Virus record (IMG/VR): IMGVR_UViG_3300032138_000004
Span: 1-64,000 of that record
DNA: 64,000 bases
Direction: 5' to 3' (one strand)
Source: a virus
Taxonomy: Duplodnaviria; Caudoviricetes
Shown: piece after piece, positions 14,191-64,000 of the stretch
Numbering within the stretch: position 1 is the stretch's first letter
Layout of the letters: the number at the start of each line of letters is the position of its first letter
Made by a program: the position numbers and the translations under genes
The notes under the pieces: model-generated
What the model saw: only the letters and a program-made list of their open reading frames with translations
What the model was told of the DNA's origin: nothing
Databases searched by the model: none

Positions 14191-15237
14191 GTGAGCCTTG
14201 ACCTAGTGGTTGCCGTCTACGACATCGAGACGAAGTACGACCCGACGAAGGTGGGCGGCTGGAGTGAGCACGAGCGCATGGGCTTTGCGTGCGGGGTCGT
14301 CTCGTGGGTGCATTACCGGCAGAACGGCGCCGCGGTGAGTCGGGCGATTCTGGCCACGAACGTCTACTGGAGCCCGGTGGCGATGGCCGACGACCTTTTG
14401 CGGCCGTGGGCGCACGCCCTCTGCGCCTACAACGGGCACCGGTTCGACATCCCCCTCCTTGTCTCGCAGGCGATAGCGCCGATGGCCGGGCCGTACCTCG
14501 GACACCCCGACCCGAAGGCCGTGGCCGCGGTGGCTGGCCACCTCTGGACAGCGGGGATCCAACGGTTCCCGATCGTGCGCATGGAGCAGGAGATCCCGAA
14601 GTTCGCCCACCTCCCGAAGCTCTGGGATCGGTTCCGTGCGGCCCTCATGGCGCGGTGGATGACCAACGGGGGCCTCCCCCGCGCCATGGGGCACCGTCTC
14701 GGCGAGTGGATGCAGCGGGGGGCCGACTACTCCCGCCTCGTGCCGCCGGGTACAACGAACCTCGCGATGAGCCGGGCGGAGCTGGCCGCCGAGCTCCAGG
14801 CGCGGACCTTCGACCCGCTCGCGTGGCTGGGCGAGGAGTCGGGCAACCCGCACGTAGCGAAGTTGGACTATCTGCGGGAGGGGTTGGAGCGGGAGCCGTG
14901 GAAGCTCGACGGCGAGGTTGTCCACCACGGCGAGATCCCGCGCATGTGGCGCGAGGGCATGGTCTGGCAGGTGGTGGACTGCTGCCGCGACGACGTCGAT
15001 GCTCTGGCCGAGCTGCTACAGCAAGGGCTGAGTGGGGGGCGCAACGCCCACATCAACGCCAACCAGCTCAACAGCACCGCGCGAAACGCTGCTGGCCAGC
15101 GTGTCCCGATGGGCGCGACGGACCAGTGGATCTCGCCGCACCATGACGACGGTGGGCTCTGGAAGTATCGGATCCCGACGGCCGCCTGGTCGGGCATCCT
15201 AGAAGACATCAGGCGAACGAGGTTCACCCATGGCTGA
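14191..15237 (+). CDS. RNase H-like DEDD 3'-5' exonuclease
   Basis: YDIETK, AYNGHRFDIPLL, CCRDDV (Exo I/II/III-like). Confidence 0.75.
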   Translation: MSLDLVVAVYDIETKYDPTKVGGWSEHERMGFACGVVSWVHYRQNGAAVSRAILATNVYWSPVAMADDLLRPWAHALCAYNGHRFDIPLLVSQAIAPMAGPYLGHPDPKAVAAVAGHLWTAGIQRFPIVRMEQEIPKFAHLPKLWDRFRAALMARWMTNGGLPRAMGHRLGEWMQRGADYSRLVPPGTTNLAMSRAELAAELQARTFDPLAWLGEESGNPHVAKLDYLREGLEREPWKLDGEVVHHGEIPRMWREGMVWQVVDCCRDDVDALAELLQQGLSGGRNAHINANQLNSTARNAAGQRVPMGATDQWISPHHDDGGLWKYRIPTAAWSGILEDIRRTRFTHG

Positions 15238-16126
15238 CGCACTCACATCCATCGTCCCGCACCGGACGCTCCCCGCCCACCTTGCGACGTCCTACGGGCC
15301 GCGCGGTGCGACCATGGGTCGCGACGGCAGGCCGTGGCCGCACAGCAAGCTGACGACCGTGGGCCAGCTTGCACCTCGAGACCGAGATGGCGCGTGGAAG
15401 GCGCCCCCCGGCATGTGCCAGGGGCTCGAAGACCTCGACGCGGCGATGAAGGCGGCCGGGAGTGCCGGCGTGCGGCTGACCGAGGTGACGCGGCCGGTGG
15501 AGCGGGTGCGCACCGAGCGGGCCAAGTACGACACGTGGGTCGAGGCCGGGCGGCCGTCGCCGGGCACCCCTCGCTACCAGTCGCGGGCGATGCGCACGGT
15601 CTACATCGCACCTCCAAACTTCACGAACCACCAGTGGGGCGGCGCCGTCGACTTCCACGTCTACGCACTCGATTTTCCAGGGCTCAAGGGCAACGCGGCG
15701 CTGTCGAAGCTCTGGGATCTGGCGATACCGCTGGGCTTCACGCCGATCATCAAAAACCCGTCGCTGGAGCAGTCGGAGTGCTGGCACTTCGACCGGCTCG
15801 GCCCGTTGGCCGGCGTCCGCGCGGCCTTCGTGGCGCACCGGAACGAGTCGCCTGACTTCCGCAACGCCTACGGACTGACCGCGATGGTGGGCAACGTCCT
15901 CGTCGGCACGTTCACGGGGACGAAGAAGATGGAGCGATATGTGCAGTGTCGCCTCCTGCTGGCCGGGCACTGGCCGGGGCCGCCGGACGGTCAGATCGGC
16001 CCGAAGACACGCAAGGCACTCAAGGCGGCCGGTGTCGAGGGCGTCCGGACGCGCACGTCGGCGTCCGTCATCGTCGGACTCATGGACGAGGCTGGGGTCG
16101 GTCTGCCAGAGCTAGCCCTGCTGTGA
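15230..16126 (+). CDS. endolysin: M15-type Zn peptidase plus peptidoglycan-binding domain
   Basis: NHQWGGAVD, ECWHF; VQCRLLLAGHWPGPPDGQIGPKTRKAL. Confidence 0.8.
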   Translation: MADALTSIVPHRTLPAHLATSYGPRGATMGRDGRPWPHSKLTTVGQLAPRDRDGAWKAPPGMCQGLEDLDAAMKAAGSAGVRLTEVTRPVERVRTERAKYDTWVEAGRPSPGTPRYQSRAMRTVYIAPPNFTNHQWGGAVDFHVYALDFPGLKGNAALSKLWDLAIPLGFTPIIKNPSLEQSECWHFDRLGPLAGVRAAFVAHRNESPDFRNAYGLTAMVGNVLVGTFTGTKKMERYVQCRLLLAGHWPGPPDGQIGPKTRKALKAAGVEGVRTRTSASVIVGLMDEAGVGLPELALL

Positions 16127-16252
16127 GCGAGCGACCCAAGCAGACCCCTCGGTGTACTCCGGAGGTGCCGGAGTGCTGGGCTAGCATCGGGGGGCACCCC
16201 TGTACGTGCCCAACTGCGGACGGTGAACCATCACCGGCGCCGGGAGAAGTAG

Positions 16253-16888
16253 ATGGCCGACCAACGCCCGCCGAAGAAGAAGTGCAGCGCTACGAGCAGA
16301 CAGACCGGCAACCGGTGCGGTCAGTGGGCGCGTCCAGGGCACGACGTCTGCGTGTACCACGGAGCCGGCAAGCCGGGAGGCCGGCGGTCGGGGGCGCCGA
16401 TCAAGCACGGCCGATACTCGATCCGGCTGCGCAAGGGAAACAGCCCAACCGTCCAGCGGCGGATCGACGAGCTCATGGACGACGACGACCTCACCGACGC
16501 GCGGCGGGCGGTGGCGGTCTCTCAGGTCGCACTGGAGCAGACCTACCCGGCGCCGACGCTGGCAACGCTGAAGCGCTTTTGTGAGGGGGAGGGCATCACG
16601 AACCCAGCGCCGGGCGACCTCGAGACGATGGCCCAGGTCCTCATCGCACAAGCGGGGCGCCAGGCGGCCCAGCATGGCCGGCTACAGGTGGCCGCGGAGA
16701 AACAGCGGACGATGGCCGACGTGCTGGTGAGTCAGGCGATGCCGATCATGCGCCGGCACGCCATGAAGGTCACCGCCCTCATGCGCCGCTTCATTCCGGA
16801 GTCGCGAGCTGTCGAATTTGAAGGTGCGTTGCAGGCCCTCAATTTGGAAACGGCGGCCGAGTATCGAAACATGCAGGGTGAGGATTGA
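16253..16888 (+). CDS. terS: terminase small subunit (HGGxSTG-like N-terminus)
   Basis: CSATSRQTGNRC...CVYHGAG...KHGRYS; directly upstream of TerL. Confidence 0.65.
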   Translation: MADQRPPKKKCSATSRQTGNRCGQWARPGHDVCVYHGAGKPGGRRSGAPIKHGRYSIRLRKGNSPTVQRRIDELMDDDDLTDARRAVAVSQVALEQTYPAPTLATLKRFCEGEGITNPAPGDLETMAQVLIAQAGRQAAQHGRLQVAAEKQRTMADVLVSQAMPIMRRHAMKVTALMRRFIPESRAVEFEGALQALNLETAAEYRNMQGED

Positions 16889-18786
16889 ACCGACGCGGCC
16901 AGCGCGACATCGCCCGGCTCGGGCGGGCGATGTCGAAGGCCTTGACCGAGGCCGCGGGCGGCTCGGAGAGTCCGCTGGATCCGTGCTCGACGGCCTACGA
17001 CTTCATCGAGGAATACAACCCCCTCCTCGACGGCCGCGCATTCGACTGGATCAAGTACAAGCACCTCGTACCGGTGTATCGGGACGTCCACCCGCACGTG
17101 ACGCTCCAGGCCGGCGCCCAGACGGGGAAGACCGGCTATCTACTGGCTCGCCTCACCCGCGAGACGTTCCGCCAGTGGGGCGGGATGTTCGGCTACTACT
17201 TCCCCGATCTTCACCTTCCCCGCGCTTTCTCTACCCGCCGTTTCCGACCGTTCATGGGCAGCTCCGAGGATCTGAGATCGTGGGTCGGGGCGAGCTCGAA
17301 GCGGGGCAAGGGCACCGACGCGGTACTCACCCGCACGGTCGGGCCGTCCACGGTGTTCTTCCTGTCGGTGGGCGGGAAGTCGATGACCGAAGGGCTCCCC
17401 ATGCAGGGGATCTTCTTCGACGAGGTCCGGCGCATGGACGCGCACGACATCCAACTCGCCGAGGAGCGGACCAGCGCGCAAGCCAACCCGATCAACATCA
17501 AGGTCAGCACGGCGTTTTACCCTAAGCAGGACATAAACGCGGCCTTCCTTGCCGGAGACCAGCGCTACTTCCACACGATCTGCGGGTGCTCCGATGGGGT
17601 CGTGCTGGCGAAGCGGTGGCCCGACTGCGTGGCCGACCTCACGAAGGCAACGCCGGGGCTGCTGAACAAGGTGGCCCACGCCTACGAACACGCGGGAATG
17701 CCCTACCTGGGGCTCACCGGCGAGGAGCGTAGGCGGTGGGGAGACGCTTGCTACATTTGCCCCGACTGCGGCGAGATCATCGTCGATCCCCGCGAGGGCT
17801 ATTGGGAGCGGCACAATCCCCAGGCATGGGCGCATAGCTACCAGATGCCCCAACTCCTGAGCTGGACGTGGCCGGCATCGCGGACGTGGAAGGCCTTTTC
17901 GGATCCAGAGCAACCGCTGGACATCCAAGAGTTCCACAACAGCAAGCTCGGGCTGCCCTACCTCGACGCCGACAGCCAGCTCGTGCTCGACGAACACCTG
18001 GCATCGTGCGTAAACACGACGATCGTGTGGCCGGCGAACCAGTCGCGACGGTGGCGGAAGCGGCACTGCGTAAACACGGCCATGGGGGTCGATTGCCAGG
18101 CCGGGTACAACGTGTGCGTCATCAAGCAGCGGACAGAGTCGGGGAAGTACCGGACCATCCACCTCGCCGTGCCGCATGGTGATGACCCGTGGAAGGAGAC
18201 GGGGAAGCTCATGCACGAGTACGACGTGCGGTGTTGCGTGGTCGATGCGATGCCGCACTGGAACGAGTCGCGGCGCTTCGCTCGGCAGTGGTTGGGTCGG
18301 GTGTTCCTGGCCTTCTACGGCGACGAAGGCGGGAGCAAGGGAAAGACCGCGATGGTCTCGTGGAAGGACCGCGGGAAGAAGGCCGACCAGCGCGGCGACG
18401 TCGGCTTCAAATTCATCGTCAACATCAACCGCACGACGGGCCTGCACTGGTCGCTGTCAAGGTGGAGCCACCGCCTCAACGAGACACCGCACCCGGAGAA
18501 ATTGGTGGTGATGCTCCCCCAACAGAAGAGCCGGGTGATGCTGACGTCGGGGCTGCGGGTGGGCCGGATGACGCCCACGCCGATCTGCCGGGCGGTCTAC
18601 TGGCCCCACCAGCAATCGGTCGCGTTCCGAAAGGTCTACCTCAACGACGACGCAAAACGGCGCGACGACTTCAAGGTCATCGCGGAGCATGTGGGGGGTG
18701 TCGACCCTCACTTTGCTCATGCGAACCTGTATGCTGACGTGGCGCTCGCCAGGATCAGCCGGGCTACACGCCCTCGAGAGGTGTGA
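16885..18786 (+). CDS. terL: terminase large subunit (GpA-like)
   Basis: AGAQTGKT, IFFDE, VSTA, CPDC zinc finger, MGVD, VDAMP, DPHFAHA. Confidence 0.9.
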   Translation: MNRRGQRDIARLGRAMSKALTEAAGGSESPLDPCSTAYDFIEEYNPLLDGRAFDWIKYKHLVPVYRDVHPHVTLQAGAQTGKTGYLLARLTRETFRQWGGMFGYYFPDLHLPRAFSTRRFRPFMGSSEDLRSWVGASSKRGKGTDAVLTRTVGPSTVFFLSVGGKSMTEGLPMQGIFFDEVRRMDAHDIQLAEERTSAQANPINIKVSTAFYPKQDINAAFLAGDQRYFHTICGCSDGVVLAKRWPDCVADLTKATPGLLNKVAHAYEHAGMPYLGLTGEERRRWGDACYICPDCGEIIVDPREGYWERHNPQAWAHSYQMPQLLSWTWPASRTWKAFSDPEQPLDIQEFHNSKLGLPYLDADSQLVLDEHLASCVNTTIVWPANQSRRWRKRHCVNTAMGVDCQAGYNVCVIKQRTESGKYRTIHLAVPHGDDPWKETGKLMHEYDVRCCVVDAMPHWNESRRFARQWLGRVFLAFYGDEGGSKGKTAMVSWKDRGKKADQRGDVGFKFIVNINRTTGLHWSLSRWSHRLNETPHPEKLVVMLPQQKSRVMLTSGLRVGRMTPTPICRAVYWPHQQSVAFRKVYLNDDAKRRDDFKVIAEHVGGVDPHFAHANLYADVALARISRATRPREV

Positions 18787-19184
18787 TGGTGCGTAGTTTC
18801 GCGAACCAACGACTGCTGGATCGGATCACCGGGAAGACGGTGGAGCGGCAGATCAGCCGGGGCATGGAAGGGGTCAGTGCATCGCCGACCCTTGTGCTGC
18901 TTGAGGACCCCGTGGGCGACCTCGAGGAATTGGTCGAGGCGACCGCGATGGACGAGGGCAAGCGGCCCAGCGCGTTCCTACGGCGGCGCAAGGCCCGCCA
19001 GCTCGGTCTCGACGCATCCACCGGCGCGATGGTGCTGAATGGCCGCGAATGCTGTATGGACTTGGTGCGCGCACTCAACCGCCAACTCCACCGCTTGCGG
19101 CTTCCGGCGGAGCACGTGTGCGTGGGATGCGGCACGAGGTGGGGCGTCCAGAACCTCGTGAGAGAGGAGCGCCGGCATGGCTGA
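18786..19184 (+). CDS. hypothetical zinc-binding protein
   Basis: ECC...CVGC; overlaps both the terL stop and the portal start. Confidence 0.6.
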   Translation: MVRSFANQRLLDRITGKTVERQISRGMEGVSASPTLVLLEDPVGDLEELVEATAMDEGKRPSAFLRRRKARQLGLDASTGAMVLNGRECCMDLVRALNRQLHRLRLPAEHVCVGCGTRWGVQNLVREERRHG

Positions 19185-21063
19185 ACCAGGACTCGTCGAC
19201 CGCTTTGGGCGCCCATTGTCGAGTATGGCGAAGGGCAGCGGAGGCCTCCCGCACGGTGCGATCGATCGGCTGGTGAGCATGGGCGTAAAGGTCGGCGCTG
19301 ACGGCGCCATGACCTTCGACGCGAGTGCCGTGCGCAAAATGCGGTCGGAGCGGATCCGGCGGCACACCGTCAGTACGGTCCCCTCAACCCCACGGCACGT
19401 CGTCCGCGACGGTGGCGGGGTCGGTGTTCGCAAGGGCTTCGGCCGCTTCGAGACGCTGACTCTGGAGTCGCTGCGGGTGATTCGCGAGTCGAGCCCGATC
19501 CTCATGCCGATCCACTCGGCGCGGCACCACCAGGTCCGCGCCATGGGCCGGAAGTGGAGCGGGAAGCGCGGCGACATCGGCTGGCGGGTCGTCCATCGGG
19601 ACCACCACGCCTACAACGCCGAGGTCCCCGACTACATCGACCCCTACATCAAGCGCTTCGAGCGGACGCTGGAGTGCCCGTCTCCTCAGTATTGCGCGAC
19701 ACTCGGCGATCTCCTCGTGGGCTTGGAGGAGGACTATCTGACCATCAACCGGCCGGTCCTCGAGCTGCTGCGGTCGGCGTGGGACGACAAACGCATCATC
19801 GGCGGACGGCCCGTCGATGGTGCGTTGATCTGGCCGACGTTCGCGTGGCTCGAGAAGTGGTTGGCGGAGAACCCGACGTGGAACGTGGGCAACGAGGGCG
19901 GACTGACGGACGACGACGCCCTCAACCTCATCAGCAACATCGTCGGTTTCGACATCGGCGGGGCGCACTACTGTCTCGTCCGCGAGGGTGTACTGGAGGC
20001 GGTCTACACGCGCGACGATCTGGTGGTCGCGCCCCAGCAGAACCGCACCGACATCCGACACGCCGGCTATCCGCCGTCGCACGTGGAGCAGGCCATCGAG
20101 CTCGTGCTGGGCTTCATGAACGCCTACGAGTTCAACAGCATCTTCTTCACGCGCGGAATGGTCGCCGACAAGATCCTCGGCATCAGCGGCGACGTCCACG
20201 ACGACGACGTGGACGCCTTCGTCGATATGCTCCGCGAGGCCACCCAAGGGACGAAGCGGGCGCACTCGCTCCCGGTCATGCCGCTCCCGGTCGACGGAAC
20301 GCTCCAGGTCATCGACCTCAAGGCCCAGAGTCGCGAGACGGCGTGGGAAGGGTGGATGTCGATCCTCACGGCCCTCTGCACGGCCGTCTACAGGATGGAC
20401 CCCAGCGAGATCAACGCGAAGCCGTGGTCAGGCGGGTCGTCGCCTGGCCTCAGCGAGGCGAACCGGAGTGCAGAGCTCCAATACGCGAAAGCCGAAGGGC
20501 TCCAGGGCGACTTGCAGCACCTCGCAGAGAACGTGCTGACCCCGTGGGCGCGGACGTGCCACCCCGACCTCAGCGTGGTCTTCGAGTATGGAGGGTTTGA
20601 TCCTCAGAAGGAGGCGCAGACCTACGAGGTGAGCAGCCGCGTCTACCGCACCCGCAACGAGATCCGGCTGGAGGCCGGCGATGCGCCGGTGAAACCGTGG
20701 TGGCCGTTGAAGGAGCTGGACGACCTCAGCGACGAGGACCGCGAGAAGTACGACGCGAACCCGTGGAATTGGCCCACCGATCCGGGCTTCGCTCAAGCGA
20801 TGCAGATGCAGGCCATGGGCGGCGAAGAGGAGCAGCCGGAGGGCGGCGAGTTTCCGCCGGGCGAGGGCTCAGAGCAGCCACCGGACGACGGGTACGGCGA
20901 GCCTGCGAACGGCGCCGAGGATGGCTATGGCGGCGCACCGCCGGACTACCCTTACGGAGAGCCACCAGAGCAGGAGGGGGGGCCGTCCGCGCCCGCCCAG
21001 ATGCAGAAGGGTGGCAGACTCACGATCTATGTCGAAGAATGGCCGCGGCCCTTGAAGCTGTAG
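19177..21063 (+). CDS. portal protein
   Basis: RPVDGALI, NRTD..GYPPSHVE, FNSIFFTRG, AVYRMDPSEIN, TRNEIR; acidic Pro-rich tail; follows terL. Confidence 0.85.
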   Translation: MAEPGLVDRFGRPLSSMAKGSGGLPHGAIDRLVSMGVKVGADGAMTFDASAVRKMRSERIRRHTVSTVPSTPRHVVRDGGGVGVRKGFGRFETLTLESLRVIRESSPILMPIHSARHHQVRAMGRKWSGKRGDIGWRVVHRDHHAYNAEVPDYIDPYIKRFERTLECPSPQYCATLGDLLVGLEEDYLTINRPVLELLRSAWDDKRIIGGRPVDGALIWPTFAWLEKWLAENPTWNVGNEGGLTDDDALNLISNIVGFDIGGAHYCLVREGVLEAVYTRDDLVVAPQQNRTDIRHAGYPPSHVEQAIELVLGFMNAYEFNSIFFTRGMVADKILGISGDVHDDDVDAFVDMLREATQGTKRAHSLPVMPLPVDGTLQVIDLKAQSRETAWEGWMSILTALCTAVYRMDPSEINAKPWSGGSSPGLSEANRSAELQYAKAEGLQGDLQHLAENVLTPWARTCHPDLSVVFEYGGFDPQKEAQTYEVSSRVYRTRNEIRLEAGDAPVKPWWPLKELDDLSDEDREKYDANPWNWPTDPGFAQAMQMQAMGGEEEQPEGGEFPPGEGSEQPPDDGYGEPANGAEDGYGGAPPDYPYGEPPEQEGGPSAPAQMQKGGRLTIYVEEWPRPLKL

Positions 21064-21084: not shown

Positions 21085-21489
21085 ATGTCAACCCCCCGTC
21101 AATACTCCCGCGCAGGCGGCCTACTCGCCACCGACACGAAGATCGTGCGGGAGGGCGTGGTAGCCGCCGAGTCGGCGCCGACGACCTACAACGACGGCAT
21201 CAAGCAACGGCTGGCGAAGGTCTCCGAGGTCCAGTGGGTGATCATCATGCCCGCCGGGATCACGAGCTTCGACGTCGCCTTTTATCGGTACGTCCGGACG
21301 CTGGACCGAGACGGAGAAGAGGTCTATGGCGCGTGGGTCAAGGACGAGACCACGGCGGGCGAGACCGAATCGCTGGTGTATTACCAGTATCTCGCGCAGC
21401 AGCCCGTCCAGTGTGCCATCACGGCCATGAGTGGAACGCCTGGGGATGGCTTCGTCATTCTCCGCACGGGCGTCCAGAAGGGGACGTAA
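21085..21489 (+). CDS. hypothetical protein
   Basis: GGAGG SD; beta-rich. Confidence 0.65.
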   Translation: MSTPRQYSRAGGLLATDTKIVREGVVAAESAPTTYNDGIKQRLAKVSEVQWVIIMPAGITSFDVAFYRYVRTLDRDGEEVYGAWVKDETTAGETESLVYYQYLAQQPVQCAITAMSGTPGDGFVILRTGVQKGT

Positions 21490-21492: not shown

Positions 21493-22098
21493 ATGGCCAT
21501 CCGATCTCAGGGCCGCCGACCAGAGCAGCAGAGCGCCAGCGTCGACGAAAACGTAGTGAGAGGTGGCGCCGCCTCGGGGTGGAGCGTCTTGCCAGGCGGA
21601 TTAGCTGGGGGCCAGGACAATCGGCCCCTAGTGGGATCGCGCCCACTCGCCAGCAGCCCGAATTACAAGCCTCGATTCTGGTATTTCGGATATTCCGCCC
21701 TTGACATGCTGTGGTGGTCCCCCACGGACGACTACGGCGGCGGCGGTTGGCTACCGGAGGACTTGTCGACCCTCCGCGCCCGATGGAGCTGGGGGCCATA
21801 CTCCGGCGCCGGGAACGGCAACACGCGCTGGTTCCTTCGGGTCTTCCAGTTTGACGCCGACGCGGAGGTCGGGACCTCGCCCGTCTGGGACTACACGGCC
21901 TCGTCGACTATCAGCGACTCAAGTGCGTCCTCCAACTCCAACACCGAATCCACCATCGACCTCGACCTCACCCAGGGCGGAGGGTACGACCCCGACCGCC
22001 TCACGTGCATCACCTTCGGACGGGACGGGACGGACGGGGTCGAGGACACTTCGACGCGCTCCTCGTGGCTCTGGGCGGCACAGCTAGAGGTCTCATAG
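21493..22098 (+). CDS. hypothetical virion-like protein
   Basis: Ser/Thr/Gly/Trp-rich; co-oriented in the operon. Confidence 0.55.
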   Translation: MAIRSQGRRPEQQSASVDENVVRGGAASGWSVLPGGLAGGQDNRPLVGSRPLASSPNYKPRFWYFGYSALDMLWWSPTDDYGGGGWLPEDLSTLRARWSWGPYSGAGNGNTRWFLRVFQFDADAEVGTSPVWDYTASSTISDSSASSNSNTESTIDLDLTQGGGYDPDRLTCITFGRDGTDGVEDTSTRSSWLWAAQLEVS

Positions 22099-22124
22099 CC
22101 TCGGATCTTCCAGTGCGACCCCTC

Positions 22125-22136
22125 GCGTGGTAGACC
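22125..22136 (+). promoter_or_regulatory. putative extended -10 promoter GCGTGGTAGACC
   Basis: Identical to 11228-11239. Confidence 0.5.
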
Positions 22137-22164
22137 GGAAACAGCACTAAGTCAGGAGGACAAC

Positions 22165-22404
22165 ATGCCCCGCGTGAAGCTCGTTCGCATCACTACCAAC
22201 ACCCCCGACCTCGACCAACTCGCGGCGGCAATACTTGCCCAGGATGCCGATGCCGTGGGCAACATCCTCGACCATGTTTTCGAGTTCCGTGGTCCGGTCG
22301 GGGGATTTTTGGAGGGTATCGACGGTGTGGTGTGGGACGAATTGGCCATGTTTCTCATCTCCAATTTGCCAGGCCTCGCCGACCGGATGGCGGCGACCGA
22401 GTAG
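22165..22404 (+). CDS. hypothetical protein
   Basis: AGGAG SD before the ATG. Confidence 0.65.
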   Translation: MPRVKLVRITTNTPDLDQLAAAILAQDADAVGNILDHVFEFRGPVGGFLEGIDGVVWDELAMFLISNLPGLADRMAATE

Positions 22405-22416
22405 GCATCGCGCGCC

Positions 22417-22548
22417 ATGAAGCGCCTGGGGCCCCTGGCCGCCGCCGCACTTGTGCTGCTCCACGTCGCGTGCGGCTGGCTCACCCCGACCGAGGCGTGG
22501 CGGTGGGCGTGGCGGGCTATGCTCGAGGGACGAGGTGGCGATGAGTGA
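22417..22548 (+). CDS. small membrane or lipoprotein-like peptide (43 aa, not in the ORF track)
   Basis: MKRLGPLAAAALVLLHVACGW...; fills the gap and overlaps the next start. Confidence 0.4.
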   Translation: MKRLGPLAAAALVLLHVACGWLTPTEAWRWAWRAMLEGRGGDE

Positions 22549-22855
22549 CCCGGTGCTGACTGAGGTGACCTTGGTGCAGGTCGCGGCCCTCGTTGGTGTG
22601 GTGTCGGCGCTCACTGCTGGATTCGGGCAATTGCTGGCCCCGTGGCGGTCGTTGCAGAAGCTGGTCGAGGAGCACCACCGGTTGCTGGTCAAGCCCGATC
22701 ACGGCCACGTGTCGCTGGTGCAGCGGGTGCAGGATGCCGAGTCTGAGCTGACACGGCGACGGCAGGCCGACCGAGACATGCACGCCATCCTCGCCCGCAT
22801 CGACCAGCACGTCAGGCCTGTGGAGGAGGATACCGGTGGCACTCCCGGCGCGTAA
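22541..22855 (+). CDS. single-TM coiled-coil protein (holin-like)
   Basis: GAGGTGG SD, ATG 22541; LVQVAALVGVVSALTAGFGQLL. Confidence 0.5.
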   Translation: MSDPVLTEVTLVQVAALVGVVSALTAGFGQLLAPWRSLQKLVEEHHRLLVKPDHGHVSLVQRVQDAESELTRRRQADRDMHAILARIDQHVRPVEEDTGGTPGA

Positions 22856-23198
22856 GATCGCCGGCCTCCTTGAGGCCGCCATCGCCGTCCTCGACGCTGA
22901 GGAGGAGCGACACGTCGAGGGCCCCCAGCCCGCGCCACTGGGTGCGGTGGTCCCCGCCTGGATGCACGACCTGTGGGCAGGACAGGCTGGGGCGCTGCTC
23001 CCAGGGCGAACGTGCCTCGTCGAGCTACCCGACGGTCGACGGGTGAGGATGCGACTCCACGAGACCCCCGGCGGTGGGCTGGTCTGGAGGCGTGACCGTG
23101 AGGCCGAGGCCGCCTACCTCGCTGAGCGGCGGGCCCAGGCGGCCCTGCTGGGTGTCGAGTGGGACGAGGAAGACGGTGCAGAGGCGGCAGCAGGGTAG
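22836..23198 (+). CDS. hypothetical protein
   Basis: GGAGG SD; last gene of the rightward arm. Confidence 0.5.
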   Translation: MALPARKIAGLLEAAIAVLDAEEERHVEGPQPAPLGAVVPAWMHDLWAGQAGALLPGRTCLVELPDGRRVRMRLHETPGGGLVWRRDREAEAAYLAERRAQAALLGVEWDEEDGAEAAAG

Positions 23199-23201: not shown

Positions 23202-23492
23202 TCAGCCGCCCTCAGACACTGGCTCTACCGCGGCGCGCGTGACGCACTCGTCACGCTCAGCCCGCAACCGGTCGACATCAGCGCGAGCCTCGGCCAGAGT
23301 CGCTTCTGCTGAGGCCTCTCGCTCCTCACAGACAGCCACCTGTGTCCGAGCCTCGGCGCACTCTTCGGGCTCGATTCGGAGGCCCATGTAGGTGCCACCG
23401 CCCGCCATCATCGCGAGCACAACCACGCCCAGCCCAGCCTGAGCTGCAGTGGACTGCGGCATGACCGCCCGGAACTTGTCGGTGGCAGACAT
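23202..23492 (-). CDS. TM plus coiled-coil protein (spanin-like)
   Basis: AGLGVVVLAMMAGG TM, periplasmic-type helix with 3 Cys; at the end of the lysis cassette. Confidence 0.5.
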   Translation of the reverse strand: MSATDKFRAVMPQSTAAQAGLGVVVLAMMAGGGTYMGLRIEPEECAEARTQVAVCEEREASAEATLAEARADVDRLRAERDECVTRAAVEPVSEGG

Positions 23493-44500: not shown

Positions 44501-47500
44501 CGCCGATCGTGGTGTCGCCCGGCCGCACCCCCCACGGCTTCCCGATGTCGGCCAGGTACCGGGGCACGTTCACGTCGTAGAAGCGCTTCTGGCCCTCCAG
44601 GCCGCCGCCCACCACGCGCTGGATGTCCTCGCCACGGACCACGGCCACGCCGTCGTAGCCTTCCTCGGCGGCCATGCGGACCACGCGGCGGAGGGCGAGG
44701 CGGGCCCAGCGCTTCTCCTTGAAGGGGGCGTCGGGGACTCGCGCATTCAGCGCGGACCGCAGCCTCTCCGCTTCCCCGGCGGCGGCGAGAATCTCGTCAG
44801 TGAGCGCCATCTTCCGAGCATCGGGTGCGTTCGTGGCCTCGGCATCCTTCAGGTCTGCGCGAAGCGCTTCCATGCTGGCGTGAAGGCCGGCCACCTCCTG
44901 CTCCCGCATGCGCGCATCGGGCGTGTCCTCCACGTAACCATGCTTCCGAGCGGCTTGGTGCCAGTCTGACTGGGCTTCTTCTACGAACAGCACGCGCTTG
45001 CCGTCCGCAGTCGTGCGGTCGCTCAGGCGGATGTGGGCGAGGACGTTGGGCTCGGACCAGTGGGCAGAATCGTAGACGCGGCCACGCCGACGCTCGGGTG
45101 CCTCAAGTTCGTACTGGTGTGCCCGTGAGATCGCGGCCTCAGCGGTTGGGGAGTTGAACCGCGCGACCCTCGTGCCAGAGGCGTCCATCACATCCCAGGT
45201 TCCTGGGCGGCCATCCACCTCGGTCGCGACCCATCCGCTGGAGCTGACGCTGTCGGGCAGCGTCAGCAGCACCTCGCGGTAGTTCTCGGCGCCGGGCTGG
45301 GTGTACTCGGACCAGCGGGTGGGGTCCTCCGATCCGCGGTCACTGTAGGCCGCGATGTAGTCAATGGCGGCGTTCTCCAACGGCTCCCTATTCGGGCCCT
45401 CAACGCCCAGATCGTCCAGCCGCTCGGCCAGTAGGCCGCCGTCAGGTTCTTCCCGCAGAAACGCCACCAGCGCGTGCAGGTCTCCCAAAGACAGGTCCGC
45501 ACGGCCAACGGCCCACTCCAGCGCGTTGCGCTCCGCCCGCATGGCGCCGTCTTCCAGGGCCACTCCTTCGACGCTACGCTTCTGGACCTCCCGCACCTCG
45601 ACACGCTGCCCACGCATGAACGCCCGAAACTCGTCGACCGTCATCTTCTTGCGGCCCAACTCCTCGATCTCGCTCAGGTCCATCCACTTCAGCTCTTCGG
45701 CCAGCGCGGGGTCCTTCTTGGCGAGGGCCTTCAGCTTCGTCACCACGCCCTTCGCCCGCATCGAGCCCGACGCAGGGAAGGCCTCGACGGCGCCCTCCTC
45801 GAGGCGGGAGAACCAGGCGGGGCCGGGGGTGGCCGGGGCGGCCGCGGGGGGCTCGACCTCGACGATGTCCTTCGCCCGCACCATCATCCGCGCGTTGCCG
45901 GCCTGCACCTTCAGTCGGTACCCAGCCTCATGTCGGGTCGAGCCAGGCTCGTACACCTCGACGACCTCGCCCTCGAACTCACGCATCGGGCGCCCACCAT
46001 CAGCGGAGGGCTCGACACGAACCCGGCTGCCAACGACAGCGGGGTGCCAGACGTGTGCACCTCCCATCTGGGTGCGCCACTCGTCCCACAGAGTCACCAG
46101 CTCGGGGCTGACGCCGCGCAGCGCTGTCCGCACCTCGTCGGGCTTCGGGTTGTTCAGCGCGGCGATGATCTCACCCTCGTGCATCCCGGCCCGCAGGGCG
46201 GCCTGCTCGAAGCGGGCCCGAGCCCGGGCAACCTTCGGCGGCTCGGGGACAAACTTGGCGACGTCGTCACCCTCGGCCAGCACGCCCGTCTTCGGCACCT
46301 CTGGCCCAGGGGCGTCCACCGACTTCAGCCGGAACTGCTCGAAGTACGTCTCGACCCGCGGCACCTTGCCGTCGATCACCGCCCGCATGGACTCCATCTC
46401 CGACACCGCCATGGCCCAGTCGGCACCGCCCTTCGGCAGTTGGCCTCGGGCCTCCGCCTGCTCGGCCGCCGCGCGCATCGCCTGGTAGTCGGGGGTCGCC
46501 CGCAGCGCCTGCTGCCGCGGGGTGTTGCTCTTCATCACCTTGCGAATGTTGTCGAGGTGGGCCAACCCGTTGAGTTCGGCCGTTTCGTCGTACTCGCCGA
46601 GCATGGCGTTCAGTTCTTCAGGGCTCTTCCCCGTCACCACCCGCAGCACCTCGCGCACCGCGTCGTGCTGGTCGCGGGCCACCTGCTCCTTGAAGCTGGC
46701 GCCGCGCACCGCGTTCCGGCGCACACCCGTCTCGACGACGCCGCCGTAGACGTCCCATGGGGTGCCCGTCCGCGCCTCGAAGCGGCCGGCGAACAACTCG
46801 GGGGCGGCGCCAGCGCCGAAGGCAAGGCCCACGTCGCCCTTCGTGGCCGCCGCTGCCCGGCTCATCTGCCGGGCGTAGCTGATGCCCGTCCCGCCGCGAG
46901 ACCAGGCCGCACCCACCGGCGCAGAGGGAATCTTCTCCCAGTCGATGAGGAAGTCAAAAGCCAGCCCGAGCTGGAGCGCTGTCTGGAAGGCCAGCGTGTC
47001 CTCGCCGTAGCCAAGGCTGTAGGCCATGTCGGGCAGGCTCAGCGCGAGGCCCTGCTGGTCCTCCTTGAGGTGCGTCGTCAGCCGGCCACCCCACGTGCTG
47101 TCGTCGGAGAACAGCCGGGTGTAGTCCTCAGTTCCGAGAATGCGGCTGATGGCCGGTGAACCGAGCATCTTGTCGACGCCGTAGAGCGAGGGGAACCGAA
47201 GCTCATCCTGGATCGCCCCGGCTGTGTCCTCGACACCGAGTACACGCTGGGCCAACGACCATGCCATCAGCGGCACGACGGGGGGGGCGTCGATGTCAGC
47301 CTGCAGAACCGCCGTCTGCGTAACGCCAGCCGGCACTCGCATCAGCCAGCCGAAGGTCGTCTCTGCCTTTAAGAATCCATCCTCCCCGATAGGAGTGGTA
47401 TCGCTCGATAGGCCCTCAAGAACCCCGCTCATCACGTCGACTGTGGCACCACCAGTGGCGGCCCTGGCCCGCTTCCGCTCGGCCACGCCCTTGCGCAGGC

Positions 47501-58920: not shown

Positions 58921-58952
58921 GAGGGGGTGGCCCCTGCTCTGTAGGCGTCAGA

Positions 58953-59408
58953 TCACGGCTTCTGGGCGAGACCCAGGGGGTCAAGCAGGATGCCGGTCGC
59001 CACGTTGGTCACCGCCGAATCGTCGGTCAGCGCCACGGCCACATGGGTGTAGCTCTCGGGGTCAGAGACAGCCGAGTTGGTGTAGTCGATCAGCTGAGCG
59101 TGAGCACTCGCCGAGCCGACAAGGATGTCGCCCGCGACCGTGTCCTCGTCCACCGGCAAGGCCGTGTTGTAGCCCTTGACCTGGACCTCGATGAAGCCGG
59201 CCTCTGTCCATGCCTCCATCGAAATCCCGCCGATGAGGGCGGGGGGATCGGTGGTCAGGTAGGACTTGAAGCTGTTGCCCAGACCGTGGGTGGTGTCTGT
59301 GGTGTTGATGACCACAGGTACGTTGGCCGAGCCCGTGCCCGTCACGTACAGCTGACGGAACGACTTCTCGTAGATGTCGGTGTTGAACACACCATCGACG
59401 CGACGCAT
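58953..59408 (-). CDS. capsid cement / decoration protein
   Basis: Directly after the MCP; GFIEVQVKG...VAGDIL pattern. Confidence 0.6.
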   Translation of the reverse strand: MRRVDGVFNTDIYEKSFRQLYVTGTGSANVPVVINTTDTTHGLGNSFKSYLTTDPPALIGGISMEAWTEAGFIEVQVKGYNTALPVDEDTVAGDILVGSASAHAQLIDYTNSAVSDPESYTHVAVALTDDSAVTNVATGILLDPLGLAQKP

Positions 59409-59449
59409 GGGAGTTCTCCTTGGCCGAGCTCAGCCGGCCGTCATGGGGT

Positions 59450-60511
59450 TCAGAAGGTCTCACCGGAGTGGATGAGGCCGGTGGAGTGGAACTTCTTCAC
59501 GCACCACTGACCGTTGCAGTCGATGAAGGCGACCACGCCACGGTGCCCGCCGCCGACTTCGCGGAAGTCGGTGATGCCGAAGTGACCGTCAGTGTCAGCG
59601 CGCAGCCACACGGGGTAGATCCCCTTGAGGTCGAGCAGGAGCAGCGACCACGGCGAGGCCGCGGTGTTGGTCCCGCTGATGGGCATGTCGCCGGTCTGGT
59701 GGATGGGTGCGCCCATGAGCATGACGTCGGGCGAGTACAGGTCGGGGTTGTCGCCCGGCTTGTACTGCATGTAAGGCTCCATCACGCGCTGGGCGTTCAG
59801 GAGACCCTGGCGACTGGCCAAGACAGTGAGGCCCTCGGCGTCGCCGTACTCGCGGACGTTGTTGATGATGGTCCGAACGCCCTCACGACCGTTGCTGCCG
59901 AACAGGTCCGACATGTCGTAGGACCAGTTGTTCATGCCGGGCACAGCGTTCAGGGTCGACTTGCTCAGGCCGCCGACGGTGTTGCCCTGGGTGCCGTGGG
60001 CATCCTCCTCGACGTAGCCAAGGGTGGCGTCGTCGGTGCCGTTGAGGTGGCTCCAGCCCGAGGCCAGGAAGCCAGCACCAGTGCCGGCCAGGCTGTAGAC
60101 GTGGAACCTCCGCTTCATCATGCGGGAGACGCCCTTGACCTTGTCGCCGACGTAGTCGTAGAAGGCGGCCTCACCCGTGTAGGTGTTCTTGTCCACCTGA
60201 GTGAAGACGATGGGTGCGCTGGCGTAGCCGGGCTCGAAGACGAAGGTACGGTCCGTGCCCTCGATGTCGAGGGTGACCTCCTCGTAGCCGGTGGGCATGC
60301 CAGTCACGTCGCTGTGCTCGATGACCTCGACGGGCTGCAGCCACTTGCGGCCGCCGTCCTTGGAGGGCTTGCCGACGCCGTTGATGCGGTCCGTCTCGAG
60401 GCAAAGCGGCAGCTTCTTGTCGAGGAGGTCTGGCTTTTCATCGCCCAGGACGGACATGGCGACGTTCGACAGCTCTTCGGTGTCGAAGGTGAGAGTGCGG
60501 CTGGAGGCCAT
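59450..60511 (-). CDS. major capsid protein
   Basis: 353 aa; DGGRKWLQPV, SAPIVF..VD...GE, TVGGLSK; strong SD; follows the scaffold-like gene. Confidence 0.75.
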   Translation of the reverse strand: MASSRTLTFDTEELSNVAMSVLGDEKPDLLDKKLPLCLETDRINGVGKPSKDGGRKWLQPVEVIEHSDVTGMPTGYEEVTLDIEGTDRTFVFEPGYASAPIVFTQVDKNTYTGEAAFYDYVGDKVKGVSRMMKRRFHVYSLAGTGAGFLASGWSHLNGTDDATLGYVEEDAHGTQGNTVGGLSKSTLNAVPGMNNWSYDMSDLFGSNGREGVRTIINNVREYGDAEGLTVLASRQGLLNAQRVMEPYMQYKPGDNPDLYSPDVMLMGAPIHQTGDMPISGTNTAASPWSLLLLDLKGIYPVWLRADTDGHFGITDFREVGGGHRGVVAFIDCNGQWCVKKFHSTGLIHSGETF

Positions 60512-60540
60512 GATGGTCTCTCCTCAGAGAGAGGGGGTGG

Positions 60541-61596: not shown

Positions 61597-61608
61597 GACC
61601 CCTCCTGG

Positions 61609-62205
61609 TCACATGGCGGCAGCCAGGGGGTCGTCCTCTGCGTACTCTGCAGGGGGCCCACTGGCCGGCGGCGCTTCGACCTCGGGAGGCGGAGCCTCCG
61701 TCGACACCAGCGCCTCGATGAACTTCTTGTCCTTCGCCATCCCATGCAGCTTGCCGCCGATCTTCTTGGCGGCGCCCGACGAGGTCAGGCTCTGCGGGTC
61801 GAAGGAGTGCTTGCCAAAGCCCAGGGCCTCGGCAGCCTGCGCCAGCATCGCCAGCGGCAGGAAGAGAGCGGGCGGGATTGGCTGGTCCCAGAACTTCACG
61901 CCCTCGGGCGCCGACCACTCGATGAGAGGCACCGGCTCCACCGGCACCTCGAGTTCCGCCTTGTCGAGCGCCTTGTTGGCAGCGTCGAGGACACCGTCCA
62001 GCTCCTTGCTCACCCGCTCGAGGTCAGCGACAGGGATCCCGTCACCCTCGGGCACGGGGGCGGCAGCGGCAAGGGTGTCGACACGGGCAGCATCCGACTG
62101 GTCCTGGGCGGCCGCGACATCCGCCGGGCCAGCACCACCGCCAGGAGGCGGGGGCATCGGAGCGTTGGAGGGCTCGGCGTAGGCGCCAGGGTTGCCAGCA
62201 GGCAT
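61609..62205 (-). CDS. hypothetical Pro/Ala-rich head-module protein
   Basis: GAGGT SD; position in the operon. Confidence 0.6.
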   Translation of the reverse strand: MPAGNPGAYAEPSNAPMPPPPGGGAGPADVAAAQDQSDAARVDTLAAAAPVPEGDGIPVADLERVSKELDGVLDAANKALDKAELEVPVEPVPLIEWSAPEGVKFWDQPIPPALFLPLAMLAQAAEALGFGKHSFDPQSLTSSGAAKKIGGKLHGMAKDKKFIEALVSTEAPPPEVEAPPASGPPAEYAEDDPLAAAM

Positions 62206-62310
62206 GGATGTACGACCTCGTTCGGTCGGACGGTAGCACGCACCATCTTTGACGGCAAAGCCTGTGATCTCACATAGTTACTGTACTTGTTGCAGGCACA
62301 ATCTATATGT

Positions 62311-62961
62311 CTACTTGATGCGTCGAGGCGCCATGACGTGAGGATTCTCGCGACGCAGGTGAGCCAGGATCCGCTTCTTCTCGTTGTCGTTCTCGAAGCG
62401 GTCGACGTAGTCGTTGTTCCACCAGTCCTTGAGCTTCTCATCTTCGCGGTCGGCCAGAGCGTGGAGCCGCTCGGCCTCGTTCGCCGCCTCGCCCTCGAGG
62501 CACACCCAGCCTCGCTTCTTCATCTCTGCGCGACGGTGGCCTGGGCTGCGCAGCATGATCCCCATGCCCTTGTCGAAGTAGGGGTAGCGCTCGCTCGCCC
62601 GATCGTAGGTGCCGCACACCTCGTAGATCGTGGCCTCCCCACACTCAGGGCACCCGCCCGGGGGCTCGGGGTCACCGTTGGCGTCGAGCCACACGTCGGT
62701 CGTCTCATCCTTCCACTCGCAGGTAGTCGAGGTGCACGACTGGTCCTTGAACATGTAGCGGCGCCCCGTCTCGGGACACAGGCGCCCCGCCGAGCGCTGG
62801 TTGAACTTGGCCCGCTCCTCCTTCGGGAACTCGACGCCGAAGTCGTTGCGCAGCATGGGCTCCCCGCACTCGACGCACTCGGCCGGGGTGTCGCGGCCGT
62901 TCATGGGGCGCTGCTCTGCGCGCGTGTGCTCGTTCGCGCACTTGTATCCGTAGCGGGGCAT
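62311..62961 (-). CDS. FmdB-like zinc-ribbon protein with two ribbons
   Basis: MPRYGYKCANEH...CVECG and CTSTTC...CPECG. Confidence 0.7.
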   Translation of the reverse strand: MPRYGYKCANEHTRAEQRPMNGRDTPAECVECGEPMLRNDFGVEFPKEERAKFNQRSAGRLCPETGRRYMFKDQSCTSTTCEWKDETTDVWLDANGDPEPPGGCPECGEATIYEVCGTYDRASERYPYFDKGMGIMLRSPGHRRAEMKKRGWVCLEGEAANEAERLHALADREDEKLKDWWNNDYVDRFENDNEKKRILAHLRRENPHVMAPRRIK

Positions 62962-62971
62962 GGCCGACTCC

Positions 62972-63172
62972 TCAGCAGGTCTCGGGGACGATGACGGAGC
63001 CCTCGGGGTGCGAGTCGAGCTCGCCCTCCGTCACGCGGCTCGTGATGAGCGGCTGCCGACCGGGGCGGTCAACAACCATGAGCACCAGGACGCCACCCGC
63101 CACGTGGGTGCCGTAGCTGGTGATCTGGGTGCCGTCAGGTGGGTGGCTGGTGCCGAGGTACTCGAAGTCCAT
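62972..63172 (-). CDS. hypothetical protein
   Basis: AGGAGGAG SD. Confidence 0.6.
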   Translation of the reverse strand: MDFEYLGTSHPPDGTQITSYGTHVAGGVLVLMVVDRPGRQPLITSRVTEGELDSHPEGSVIVPETC

Positions 63173-63184
63173 GTGGTTCTCCTC

Positions 63185-64000
63185 CTACGCAGCCATGGGC
63201 TGCATGGCCTTTGCGATGGTGCCGATGAGAGCCTGCACCCCTTCGGCGCGGCTCTCTGGTGGTAGCTGCATGACCTGCTCGAGGAGCTGGGCCACGCCGG
63301 GGTCGTTCCCGAACTGCTGAGCGATGACCTGCAGCGCCTGGTCGGGCGGCATGGCCTGCAGCTGCGCCAGGAACTGCTCGGCCTCCGAACCCGGCGGGCC
63401 AGCAGGGGGAGCACCAGGGGGAGGCGCAACCTCAGCGCCCGGGGGCGGCGGGCCAGCTGGCGGGGCATCGGCAGGTGCGGGCTCACCGGCGGGCGGCGTG
63501 TCACCACCCTCCTCGGCTGCCTCTTCCTCGGCCTGTGCCAGCTGCGACAGCAGGCGGTCGGGGTCGAGCTGCTCGGGCAGGGTGAAGTGCGACCACATGG
63601 CGCGCATCGAGGCCTCAGCCAGGATGCCCTCGGGTGTGCCCCGCTTCGCCACCGCCGTCAGGAACTCGACCTTGTAGGGCTCGAGCAGGTTCTTGAGGTT
63701 CGTCTGGATCTCCGCGTAGGTGCGCGGGCTCCGGCCCTCCTCGCTGAATCCGTAGGTGAACTCGCTGTCGATGTCCTCGATGGTGATCTCGACCCGTTCC
63801 TTGCGTGCGTTCTGCAGCACGATGACCTCGGCCATGTCGCGGGCGCCGTCGCCTTCGGGCGCCTCGAGGAGGCCGTCGTCGTCCGCCGTCGGCGTCGCCG
63901 CCTCACGAAGCTCGTGCATGAAGCCGAAGCCGTCGTCGACCTTTCCGTCGGGGCCCACGAGGTCGTCCTCGTCCTCGTCCTCCTGCTCGGTGTCCTCGTC
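63185..64000 (-). CDS. C-terminal part of a probable podovirus-type portal protein (runs off the window)
   Basis: ITIEDIDSEFTYGFSEEGRSP...helical region, Pro/Gln-rich tail; order portal-FmdB-scaffold-MCP; N-terminus not visible. Confidence 0.5.
   Translation of the reverse strand, partial: DEDTEQEDEDEDDLVGPDGKVDDGFGFMHELREAATPTADDDGLLEAPEGDGARDMAEVIVLQNARKERVEITIEDIDSEFTYGFSEEGRSPRTYAEIQTNLKNLLEPYKVEFLTAVAKRGTPEGILAEASMRAMWSHFTLPEQLDPDRLLSQLAQAEEEAAEEGGDTPPAGEPAPADAPPAGPPPPGAEVAPPPGAPPAGPPGSEAEQFLAQLQAMPPDQALQVIAQQFGNDPGVAQLLEQVMQLPPESRAEGVQALIGTIAKAMQPMAA

Follow-up and report, generated by a model that had tools for sequence, protein, structure and literature searches.

Two packaging gene sets on a metagenomic virus contig: a very probable assembly chimera of a complete podophage genome and a fragment of an unrelated phage

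Chimeric contigs have been described in virome and metagenome assemblies, and MEGAHIT is reported to form fewer chimeras than metaSPAdes does (Roux et al. 2017, PeerJ, PMC5610896). In these cases, a highly similar region leads to a single contig for viruses that coexist. Two types of phages are of relevance for the contig described here. The phages PHB04 (Bordetella), Mecenats66 (Morganella) and Touem01/Dolphis (Pseudomonas) possess a gpA-type terminase and genomes of about 86–95 kb, and in SU10 (Kuravirus) and the P22-like podophages the order TerL, portal, scaffold, major capsid protein (MCP) is found. Capsid-forming PICIs (cf-PICIs) are islands integrated in the host genome that possess an integrase and also encode their capsid. 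According to the SatelliteFinder survey (PMC10085698), some satellites carry terminase and portal genes of their own.

The record IMGVR_UViG_3300032138_000004 is a metagenome contig of 99,775 bp, listed as a virus contig in IMG/VR; its positions 1 to 64,000 are the window analysed here.

This contig is very probably chimeric and consists of the complete circle of a podophage (phage B), onto which a fragment of an unrelated phage (phage A) was threaded. The double packaging set is in all likelihood an assembly artefact and belongs neither to a phage with two motors nor to a capsid-less satellite. The parts are:
1–22,669: fragment of phage A (100% identity to ENA contig k141_83275; synteny with contigs of A-type phages)
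22,670–22,937: seam, DNA identical in A and B and the putative crossing point of the assembler
22,797–64,000 in the window and on to 99,775: genome of phage B (circular map of 76,979 bp)

As in the chimeras of Roux et al., coexisting viruses with a highly similar region were joined, and the tendency of MEGAHIT fits as well, as the MEGAHIT assembly separates A and B while the longer contig joins them. In contrast to those chimeras, the common stretch is very short (141 bp observed, probably about 268 bp) and lies in a horizontally exchanged cassette of two genes, and A and B are otherwise unrelated and not strain variants.

A preliminary description of the window had proposed two packaging sets facing each other, and both sets do exist. 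Block A contains replication genes, a block in the order exo, 298-aa gene, TerS, TerL, 133-aa gene, portal, 134-aa gene, and small genes:
1,414–2,829: RdgC-like gene (Pfam match)
3,054–3,794: Rep-O-like gene (Pfam match)
3,861–5,696: UvrD gene (Pfam match)
15,230–16,126: candidate endolysin (sub-threshold PG_binding_1 match)
16,253–16,888, plus strand: candidate small terminase of A (TerS-A), 211 aa, directly upstream of TerL-A and overlapping it
16,885–18,786, plus strand: TerL-A of the lambda gpA type, 633 aa (phrog_675, PF05876)
19,177–21,063, plus strand: portal A, 628 aa (portal PHROGs)
21,085–21,489, plus strand: 134-aa gene, the last one syntenic with the wider A-type family
21,493–22,548, plus strand: small genes of 201, 79 and 43 aa, close A lineage only, in a variable slot before the expected Mu-F gene

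TerL-A matched phrog_675 (E = 1.2e-53, across residues 48–626) and PF05876 GpA_ATPase (42 bits, curated cut-off 25.6), which places it in the lambda gpA type. It is 50–56% identical to its closer homologues (wider range 42–56%), whose contigs reach 98 kb and in many cases measure 72–98 kb. Homologues of the candidate TerS-A occur at the same place in the related contigs L003, L033 and L035; the family search matched only phrog_3678, to which no function is assigned there. For the endolysin proposed upstream of it, only a PG_binding_1 match below the threshold was obtained, which does not confirm the assignment. Portal A matched the annotated portals of the phages PHB04, Mecenats66 and SP-10 (tblastn) and shows 50–56% identity to the gene which follows TerL in closer A-type relatives. 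PHB04, Mecenats66 and Touem01/Dolphis provide the best deposited matches to both TerL-A (27–30% identity) and portal A (about 25%) and share the Pfam family GpA_ATPase with phage A. However, they are only distant relatives; the true family of A is uncultured and possesses a terminase-portal-Mu-F module, and no deposited phage matched the left block at the nucleotide level.

The second set is located on the minus strand and extends beyond the right border of the window:
59,450–60,511, minus strand: candidate MCP of phage B, 353 aa (look-alikes in the ESM Atlas and gene order)
63,185–65,575, minus strand, of which the C-terminal part (63,185–64,000) lies in the window: portal B, 796 aa (AlphaFold and Foldseek)
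65,572–67,191, minus strand, outside the window: TerL-B, directly upstream of portal B (phrog_2, E = 7.5e-16)

The open reading frame starting at 63,185, for which a portal function had been postulated, indeed encodes a portal. Its AlphaFold (AF2) model (pLDDT 79.6) matched the portals of Pan3, SU10, P22, N4 and T7 in Foldseek with E values down to 1e-12 (1e-12 to 1e-9 for Pan3, SU10, P22 and N4) and with a probability of 1.00 for solved podophage portals. Among 52 homologues of portal B, eight showed PF23899 (SU10_portal), and 14 showed either PF23899 or PF16510 (P22_portal). Fold and position beside TerL assign the protein to the SU10/P22-type portals. By sequence, it resembles none of the deposited phage portals. 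The search for a second TerL in the flanks, as had been suggested, revealed TerL-B, whose stop is overlapped by the portal B gene; its nearest deposited match is Roseobacter phage CRP-7 with only 27% identity. The gene at 59,450–60,511 is a candidate for an HK97-fold MCP. In the ESM Atlas it had a feature score of 0.99 and resembled, with a TM of about 0.8, clusters that bear the name major capsid protein, and PF17236 (SU10_MCP) is present in some of these. The proposal of an MCP at this site is backed by these look-alikes and by gene order, but not at the sequence level, as Pfam, PHROG and PDB profile searches gave no match, and the AF2 model from ten sequences was too poor to be used (pLDDT 39.5). 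A postulated NlpC/P60 gene was not confirmed, as Pfam NLPC_P60 was detected in no frame of the genome.

Phage B is a complete SU10/P22-like podophage genome with a circular map. Its portal fold matches those of SU10, P22, Pan3 and N4, its capsid candidate resembles SU10_MCP clusters, and with this candidate as MCP the order TerL-portal-scaffold-MCP is likewise present. It differs from these phages in its 77 kb at 68% GC, in its distant TerL, and in an open reading frame of 7058 codons. Two further features on its minus strand are:
23,202–23,492, minus strand: 96-aa gene, the last gene of the late operon of B (conserved gene order)
27,945–49,121, minus strand: giant open reading frame of phage B, 7058 aa (ORF list)
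For the giant open reading frame, precomputed Pfam matches to ART-PolyVal and DNA_methylase exist on the identical ENA gene. The order of genes for 96, 56, 182, 90 and 255 aa followed by the giant open reading frame is kept in the B relatives L017–L022 and L029–L032.

Beyond their different gene content, A and B belong to separate lineages, which were found together in none of the other genomes compared. Comparison of their proteins (blastp/tblastn) showed none in common outside the cassette, apart from one patch of 296 bp, and tblastx between A and B gave noise only. The tetranucleotide profiles, whose comparison on each side had been proposed, correlate with 0.90 within B versus 0.81 between A and B. 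An 18-nt leader is present in A only, with five copies at 3.8–14.2 kb. The promoter-like motif ascribed to each block was not confirmed: the two 9-mers occur only five and two times in 99.8 kb.

Every gene of block A that was tested maps to contiguous parts of phage genomes of 70–97 kb, and the block is syntenic with a family of phages of roughly 86–90 kb, one of which is closed at 86,223 bp. A-type genomes carry TerL-A only, and a search for TerL-B in five of them, with the contig itself as positive control, was negative. Conversely, TerS, TerL-A and portal A are missing in up to 10 kb upstream in the close relatives of B, and TerL-A is present in none of the distant B-type genomes, which are 100% complete according to CheckV at 68–75 kb. 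When IMG/VR was scanned with patterns of a single protein, TerL-A or TerL-B, nothing was obtained; relatives were found via alignments.

It had been stated correctly that no capsid gene follows portal A. Neither a capsid gene nor a Mu-F gene is located 3' of it, and no Mu-F-like homologue was found anywhere in the contig of 99.8 kb. In more than 15 A-type relatives, a conserved Mu-F-like gene (387 aa) lies 0–2.3 kb after the portal and 134-aa genes. Homologues of the 134-aa gene follow the portal in L003, L033, L034, L037, L042 and L055. The genes for 201, 79 and 43 aa show 79–94% identity in L092 and L132, which stem from other samples, and occur neither in the wider A-type family nor in the B relatives compared. 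L132, a contig of 5.3 kb from another JGI metagenome, is a variant of A with 92–95% identity (94–95% in the genes for the portal, 134 aa and 201 aa). The contig possesses the order portal, 134, 200, 79, 59, 104 and 120 aa, with its own alleles of the last two genes, followed by a Mu-F-like N-terminus (59% identity to r387, E = 3e-31). It neither shows similarity to B past position 23,164 nor runs into the tail genes of B. As far as gene order in a relative can tell, L132 is the decisive case for a continuation of A to Mu-F rather than to B. According to the preliminary description, its reading would be refuted if the capsid genes of the left block lay just outside the window. In spirit this is the case: the contig itself contains none of them, but they come directly next in L132, as in over 15 relatives.

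The region in which the two phages meet comprises the following features:
22,456–22,669: R1, the allele of A itself where the shared 43/104-aa gene region begins (about 91% identity to R2)
22,541–22,855, plus strand: 104-aa gene, a hybrid in the contig, with an N-terminal hydrophobic stretch and a helical rest
22,836–23,198, plus strand: 120-aa gene, B allele, the last gene of the plus-strand operon of B (on ENA contig B)

The block boundary had been placed at the convergence of both gene sets. The 3-bp gap between 23,198 and 23,202 is real, and no terminator-like site is present there, as had been noted; however, this convergence is native to phage B, and the 120-aa gene with the same 3-bp convergence was detected in at least eight other samples. 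The true seam lies at about 22,670–22,937, which is 260–530 bp further left and inside the 104-aa gene of both phages. The last 347 bp of the contig (99,429–99,775, R2) are a 91% copy of 22,456–22,796, and the final 127 bp are identical, which is the size of a SPAdes-style vertex at k = 127. The last mismatch between R1 and R2 is located at 22,669, and the next 141 bases are identical, as far as the two ENA contigs extend. The identity probably extends to 22,937, if one calculates with contig ends at k = 141 and with 22,797 as the first position of ENA contig B. This identity of A and B exists in this sample only.

In phage B, the 104-aa gene runs from 99,520 to 99,775 and continues at 22,797–22,855. 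The copies of A and B share 98% of their amino acids, and the identity to the gene of the B relatives is 95%. The cassette of the 104-aa and 120-aa genes is present in L132 of the A lineage as well as in B relatives. Allele R2 occurs in B relatives, and mostly R1 is found in the A variant L092, whose alleles are mosaic and change from R2 type to R1 type within 80 bp. For the cassette, the tail genes and the small genes, Pfam and PHROGs gave nothing usable.

Two other assemblies, ENA analysis ERZ27248688 and Logan run SRR9663140, split the record near 22.8 kb and do not differ from it in a single base over the 76.6 kb compared. With 100% identity, ENA contig k141_83275 (contig A, 23,072 bp) begins 261 bp to the left of position 1 and ends at 22,810. 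ENA contig k141_211543 (contig B, 76,993 bp) covers 22,797–99,775; its final 14 bases repeat its own beginning at 22,797, and it therefore closes on itself as a circle. The Logan contigs break at 22,554 and 23,035. The ENA, Logan and IMG assemblies probably go back to the same library and the same reads, given their 100% identity. Relatives of B from at least eight other samples pass through the same closure, with unbroken R2-type sequence leading into the 104-aa and 120-aa genes and on to the convergent tail genes. The join thus lies inside sequence common to both source genomes, it is missing in other assemblies, and each part continues differently elsewhere.

Out of the four readings listed in the preliminary description, misassembly is the one supported, and it probably occurred as follows. 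Phages A and B would have been present in the same sample, both with the cassette, of which about 268 bp (22,670–22,937) would be identical, so that the path of A merged into the circle of B in the assembly graph. The IMG assembler would have passed from A to B, gone round B and halted on meeting the shared stretch again. This stop on the second encounter would explain why the contig ends exactly 127 bases into the stretch. In the real genome of A, the cassette would be followed by the Mu-F-like head-morphogenesis gene on the same strand, as in L132 from the other sample, and the missing head genes of A would reside on other, unjoined contigs.

Two other explanations of the repeated sequences were considered and rejected. 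The overlap of 14 bp between the ENA contigs, GCATCGACCAGCAC, could represent filled-in cohesive (cos) ends. This was rejected because the left end of contig A starts without GCATCGACCAGCAC, because the 104-aa gene is intact across the site in B and its relatives, and because the number 14 also results if contigs at k = 141 enter a repeat of about 268 bp from both sides by 141 bases each. Two patches (13,149–13,444 with 98,920–99,197, and R1 with R2) suggested that block A is a diverged copy of the right arm of B with an insertion of 9 kb. This was rejected because no other protein is common to both and A corresponds to A-type phages over its whole length.

It is unlikely that some members of the population physically contain the junction of A to B, be it as a cassette recombinant or as an A-derived element riding in the capsid of B; if they did, two unrelated packaging motors would be encoded on the same DNA molecule. 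A real recombinant, in which homologous recombination in the 104/120-aa cassette joined the arm of A to B and which is perhaps rare or non-viable, seems quite improbable. The cassette is a proven exchange point with mosaic alleles, as the switch in L092 demonstrates, A and B are identical there in this sample only, and real spanning pairs could be behind the choice of the A-to-B path by an assembler that uses pairs. However, such a molecule, with two full packaging sets, would measure no less than 100 kb, compared to about 86–90 kb for A-type and 68–77 kb for B-type phages, so that either capsid would presumably be overfilled. Moreover, no assembly contains an exit from B to the left end of A, and the junction occurs in no relative of either lineage; the same applies to both sets together, which speaks against the earlier idea of one genome with two virion modules. 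An exact 32-mer of the seam had no match among JGI metagenome contigs.

It is very unlikely that A is a capsid-less, satellite-like element with its own replication genes, terminase and portal, which borrows capsid and tail of B and whose cassette marks this partnership, as had partly been suggested. Block A as seen does consist of replication genes, TerS, TerL and portal without a capsid gene, and like some capsid-forming PICIs and satellites it possesses its own terminase and portal. In addition, the lineages of A and B seem to occur together in at least two samples, since the contig L092 also breaks on entering the shared stretch. Nevertheless, L132 (92–95% identical) runs into the Mu-F head-morphogenesis gene like every full-size A-type phage, and the tested genes of A are all contiguous in phage genomes of 70–97 kb. 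ENA contig A shows neither closure nor an end signature, its left end matches nothing, and no integrase or att site was seen. Unlike the cf-PICIs, block A has no capsid and no integrase, and its near-identical relative belongs to a full-size phage; it thus falls into none of the satellite groups compared (P4-like, PICI, cf-PICI, PLE). Two prophages, side by side or nested in a bacterial chromosome, would explain two complete, differing packaging sets on one contig, but are practically out of the question, as the scanned ORFs drew attention to neither an integrase, an att site nor a bacterial gene and the circle of B, like those of its relatives, closes across an intact gene.

With the chimera as the preferred reading, the record has to be split at about 22.7–22.9 kb into a podophage genome of 77 kb and a fragment of another phage of 23 kb. 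The CheckV figure of 83% for the chimeric record is meaningless, and any inference on host, taxonomy or gene content from the whole record would blend two viruses. As an artefact, the double packaging set has no biological importance. The exchange of the two-gene cassette at 80–100% nucleotide identity between the unrelated A and B phages of one community suggests a common host.

One contig of 99,775 bp, with a GC content of about 68% along its whole length, supplies the window as its first 64 kb; it is entered in IMG/VR as a linear virus (CheckV completeness 83%). The ORF map of the whole contig showed the following arrangement:

0.7-10.6 kb, minus strand: early genes
11.7-23.2 kb, plus strand: operon
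23.2 to ~74.5 kb, minus strand: long late operon
~74.5 kb to contig end: early genes, mixed

The packaging genes were assigned as follows:

16885-18786, plus strand: large terminase of the gpA type, TerL-A (phrog_675, E 1e-53; PF05876, 42 bits, cut-off 25.6)
19177-21063, plus strand: portal A (portal PHROGs; annotated portals of Bordetella PHB04, Morganella Mecenats66 and Bacillus SP-10)
63185-65575, running off the window, minus strand: portal B, 796 aa (AlphaFold model and Foldseek; Pfam in homologues)
65572-67191, beyond the window and directly upstream of portal B, minus strand: large terminase, TerL-B (phrog_2, E 7.5e-16)

The left packaging set of the preliminary description is real, as phrog_675 and PF05876 identify the terminase, and PHROGs and annotated phage portals the portal. 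For the 'endolysin' of this set, the PG_binding_1 match stayed below the threshold. Downstream of portal A only small ORFs occur. More than 80 relatives of TerL-A (42-56% identity) were found, many of them on contigs of 72-98 kb, and the order exonuclease-298 aa-TerS-TerL-133 aa-portal-134 aa is syntenic in the related loci L003, L033, L034, L037/38, L052 and others. The UvrD, RdgC-like and Rep-O-like genes of block A (1-22,669) likewise have homologues on A-type contigs. In more than 15 A-type relatives, the 134-aa gene is followed by 0-2.3 kb of variable small genes and then by conserved 387-aa and 130-aa genes, the 387-aa protein being Mu-F-like (phrog_2468; Atlas clusters 71-91% PF04233). 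Neither these two genes nor the Pfam families Mu_F and Phage_capsid were detected anywhere in the 99.8 kb. TerL-B was absent from all five A-type records searched, among them a closed genome of 86,223 bp, with the 99,775-bp contig as positive control. Block A is a fragment of another phage with a larger genome (phage A).

The 86,223-bp A-type genome (G003, IMGVR_UViG_3300037493_006316; loci L094-L098) carries a 'direct terminal repeat' of exactly 127 bp. An overlap of 127 bp is left on a circular path by an assembler using k=127, so this repeat marks the closure of the assembly and no physical terminal repeat.

The right set is real as well. The sequence of portal B had no match among deposited phages or in the PDB; an exhaustive search yielded 148 relatives, and 14 of the 52 aligned ones contain the SU10_portal or P22_portal Pfam family. 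An AlphaFold model built from the alignment of these 52 (pLDDT 79.6) matched the solved portals of Pan3, SU10, P22, N4 and T7 (Foldseek E 1e-12 to 1e-8). TerL-B scored 21.9 bits against Terminase_6C, slightly under the cut-off. The major capsid protein proposed at 59450-60511 is a candidate suggested by ESM-Atlas look-alikes, and the proposed NlpC/P60 gene was not recovered when Pfam NLPC_P60 was searched in every frame.

A 7058-aa ORF of phage B (27945-49121) has ART-PolyVal and DNA_methylase Pfam matches, taken from the identical ENA gene, and an internal 213-bp repeat (42,858-43,070 and 44,526-44,738, 97% identity). ORFs of more than 5000 aa occupy this position in relatives from other samples.

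The convergence at 23198/23202 with its 3-bp gap is present, and no terminator-like hairpin was found there. The exact TerL-B protein also occurs on Logan contigs and in the ENA MEGAHIT assembly, there on a contig of 76,993 bp (contig B); for the proteins of the left block, ENA has another contig, 23,072 bp long (contig A). All ENA and Logan pieces compared are 100% identical to the IMG/VR contig, so the same reads were very probably assembled anew in them. Contig A of ENA spans -261 to 22,810. Contig B spans 22,797-99,775 and ends with 14 further bases identical to those at its start, so phage B closes into a circle of 76,979 bp. By itself, the segment 22,797-99,775 looks like a complete genome. 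The CheckV value of the IMG/VR record is a figure for a probable chimera.

In a self-comparison, the last 347 bp of the contig were a 91% copy of 22,456-22,796. The final difference between the two copies lies at 22,669, from where on they are identical. The IMG/VR contig ends exactly 127 bases into this identical stretch and both ENA contig ends lie exactly 141 bases into it; 127 and 141 are k-mer sizes of SPAdes-type and MEGAHIT assembly. With k=141, the start of contig B at 22,797 would put the right limit of the stretch, and with it the departure of a second branch, at about 22,937. In the Logan assembly the breaks fall at 22,554 and 23,035.

On contigs of at least eight other samples, the 120-aa gene converges with the same 3-bp gap on genes of 96, 56, 182, 90 and 255 aa and the giant ORF. 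Upstream of the 120-aa gene, these B relatives run straight through the right-end sequence of the present contig (L017 8850-9197 against 99,425-99,775: 95.7%) and continue with RusA- and DnaB-type genes; TerS, TerL-A and portal A are absent from the up to 10 kb covered upstream. They have the right-end allele at the positions where the two copies differ. More distant B-type IMG/VR genomes of 68-75 kb, rated 100% complete, lack TerL-A.

The A side of the junction is documented by two contigs, L092 from another Logan run and L132 from the JGI metagenome Ga0080013; they are 99.96% identical and represent one variant of the A lineage. Both share 94-95% identity with block A over the portal, 134-aa and 201-aa genes; L132 has its own versions of the 104-aa and 120-aa genes, which are more diverged (79-87%). 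About 100 bp after its 120-aa gene, L132 carries a Mu-F-like N-terminus on the same strand (59% identical to the protein in L033 over residues 14-113 of the latter, E 3e-31). L132 also matches 17 other A-type loci and has no similarity to phage B past position 23,164. Since L132 reads through these genes into MuF, the actual order in the A lineage is TerS-TerL-133-portal-134-201-79-43/59-104-120-MuF, and the cassette sits in the variable slot of phage A.

The composition also separates the two parts: tetranucleotide correlation was 0.90 within B and 0.81 between A and B, and every window sorted to its own side. The only protein common to both is the 104-aa gene product. The 18-nt leader AGCAGACTGAGCAGGAGC of the preliminary description, which precedes the early genes of A, occurs four times without mismatch and once with 15/18 identity (3801-14185), always in the phage A fragment; no exact copy occurs in B, nor any with up to 3 mismatches in its 77 kb.

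The contig is most probably the complete phage B and a fragment of phage A, joined via an identical stretch in the common gene, 141 bp of which were observed and whose deduced length is about 268 bp. Chimeric contigs from co-existing viruses with similar regions have been described, fewer with MEGAHIT than with metaSPAdes (PMC5610896). The rival readings (a genuine recombinant molecule, a satellite, prophages lying side by side) are, even taken together, rather improbable, as each is at odds with L132, the closure of B and capsid capacity.

The cassette (22456-23198; 99,429-99,775; L132:4090-4880; L017:8837-9600) consists of a 43-aa lipoprotein-like ORF, the 104-aa protein (an N-terminal hydrophobic stretch, then helical) and the 120-aa protein, for which no family matches were obtained. 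It is common to two otherwise unrelated phage lineages (79-100% nucleotide identity), and its alleles are mosaic, with a change from B-type to A-type within ~80 bp in L092. Possibly it serves in lysis or as an accessory module and has passed between phages in a host they share. A second patch of 296 bp (13,149-13,444 and 98,920-99,197, 89% identical) lies in the 326-aa gene of phage A and the 216-aa gene of phage B, and shorter parts recur in B relatives (L017 8468-8654). The plus-strand early arm of phage B (92,800-99,400: RecU-like, YAcAr-like, zinc-finger) is wholly unlike that of its 95%-identical relatives (RusA and DnaB in L017:1-8800), whereas the late genes are conserved, so the B lineage is strongly mosaic at the level of modules.
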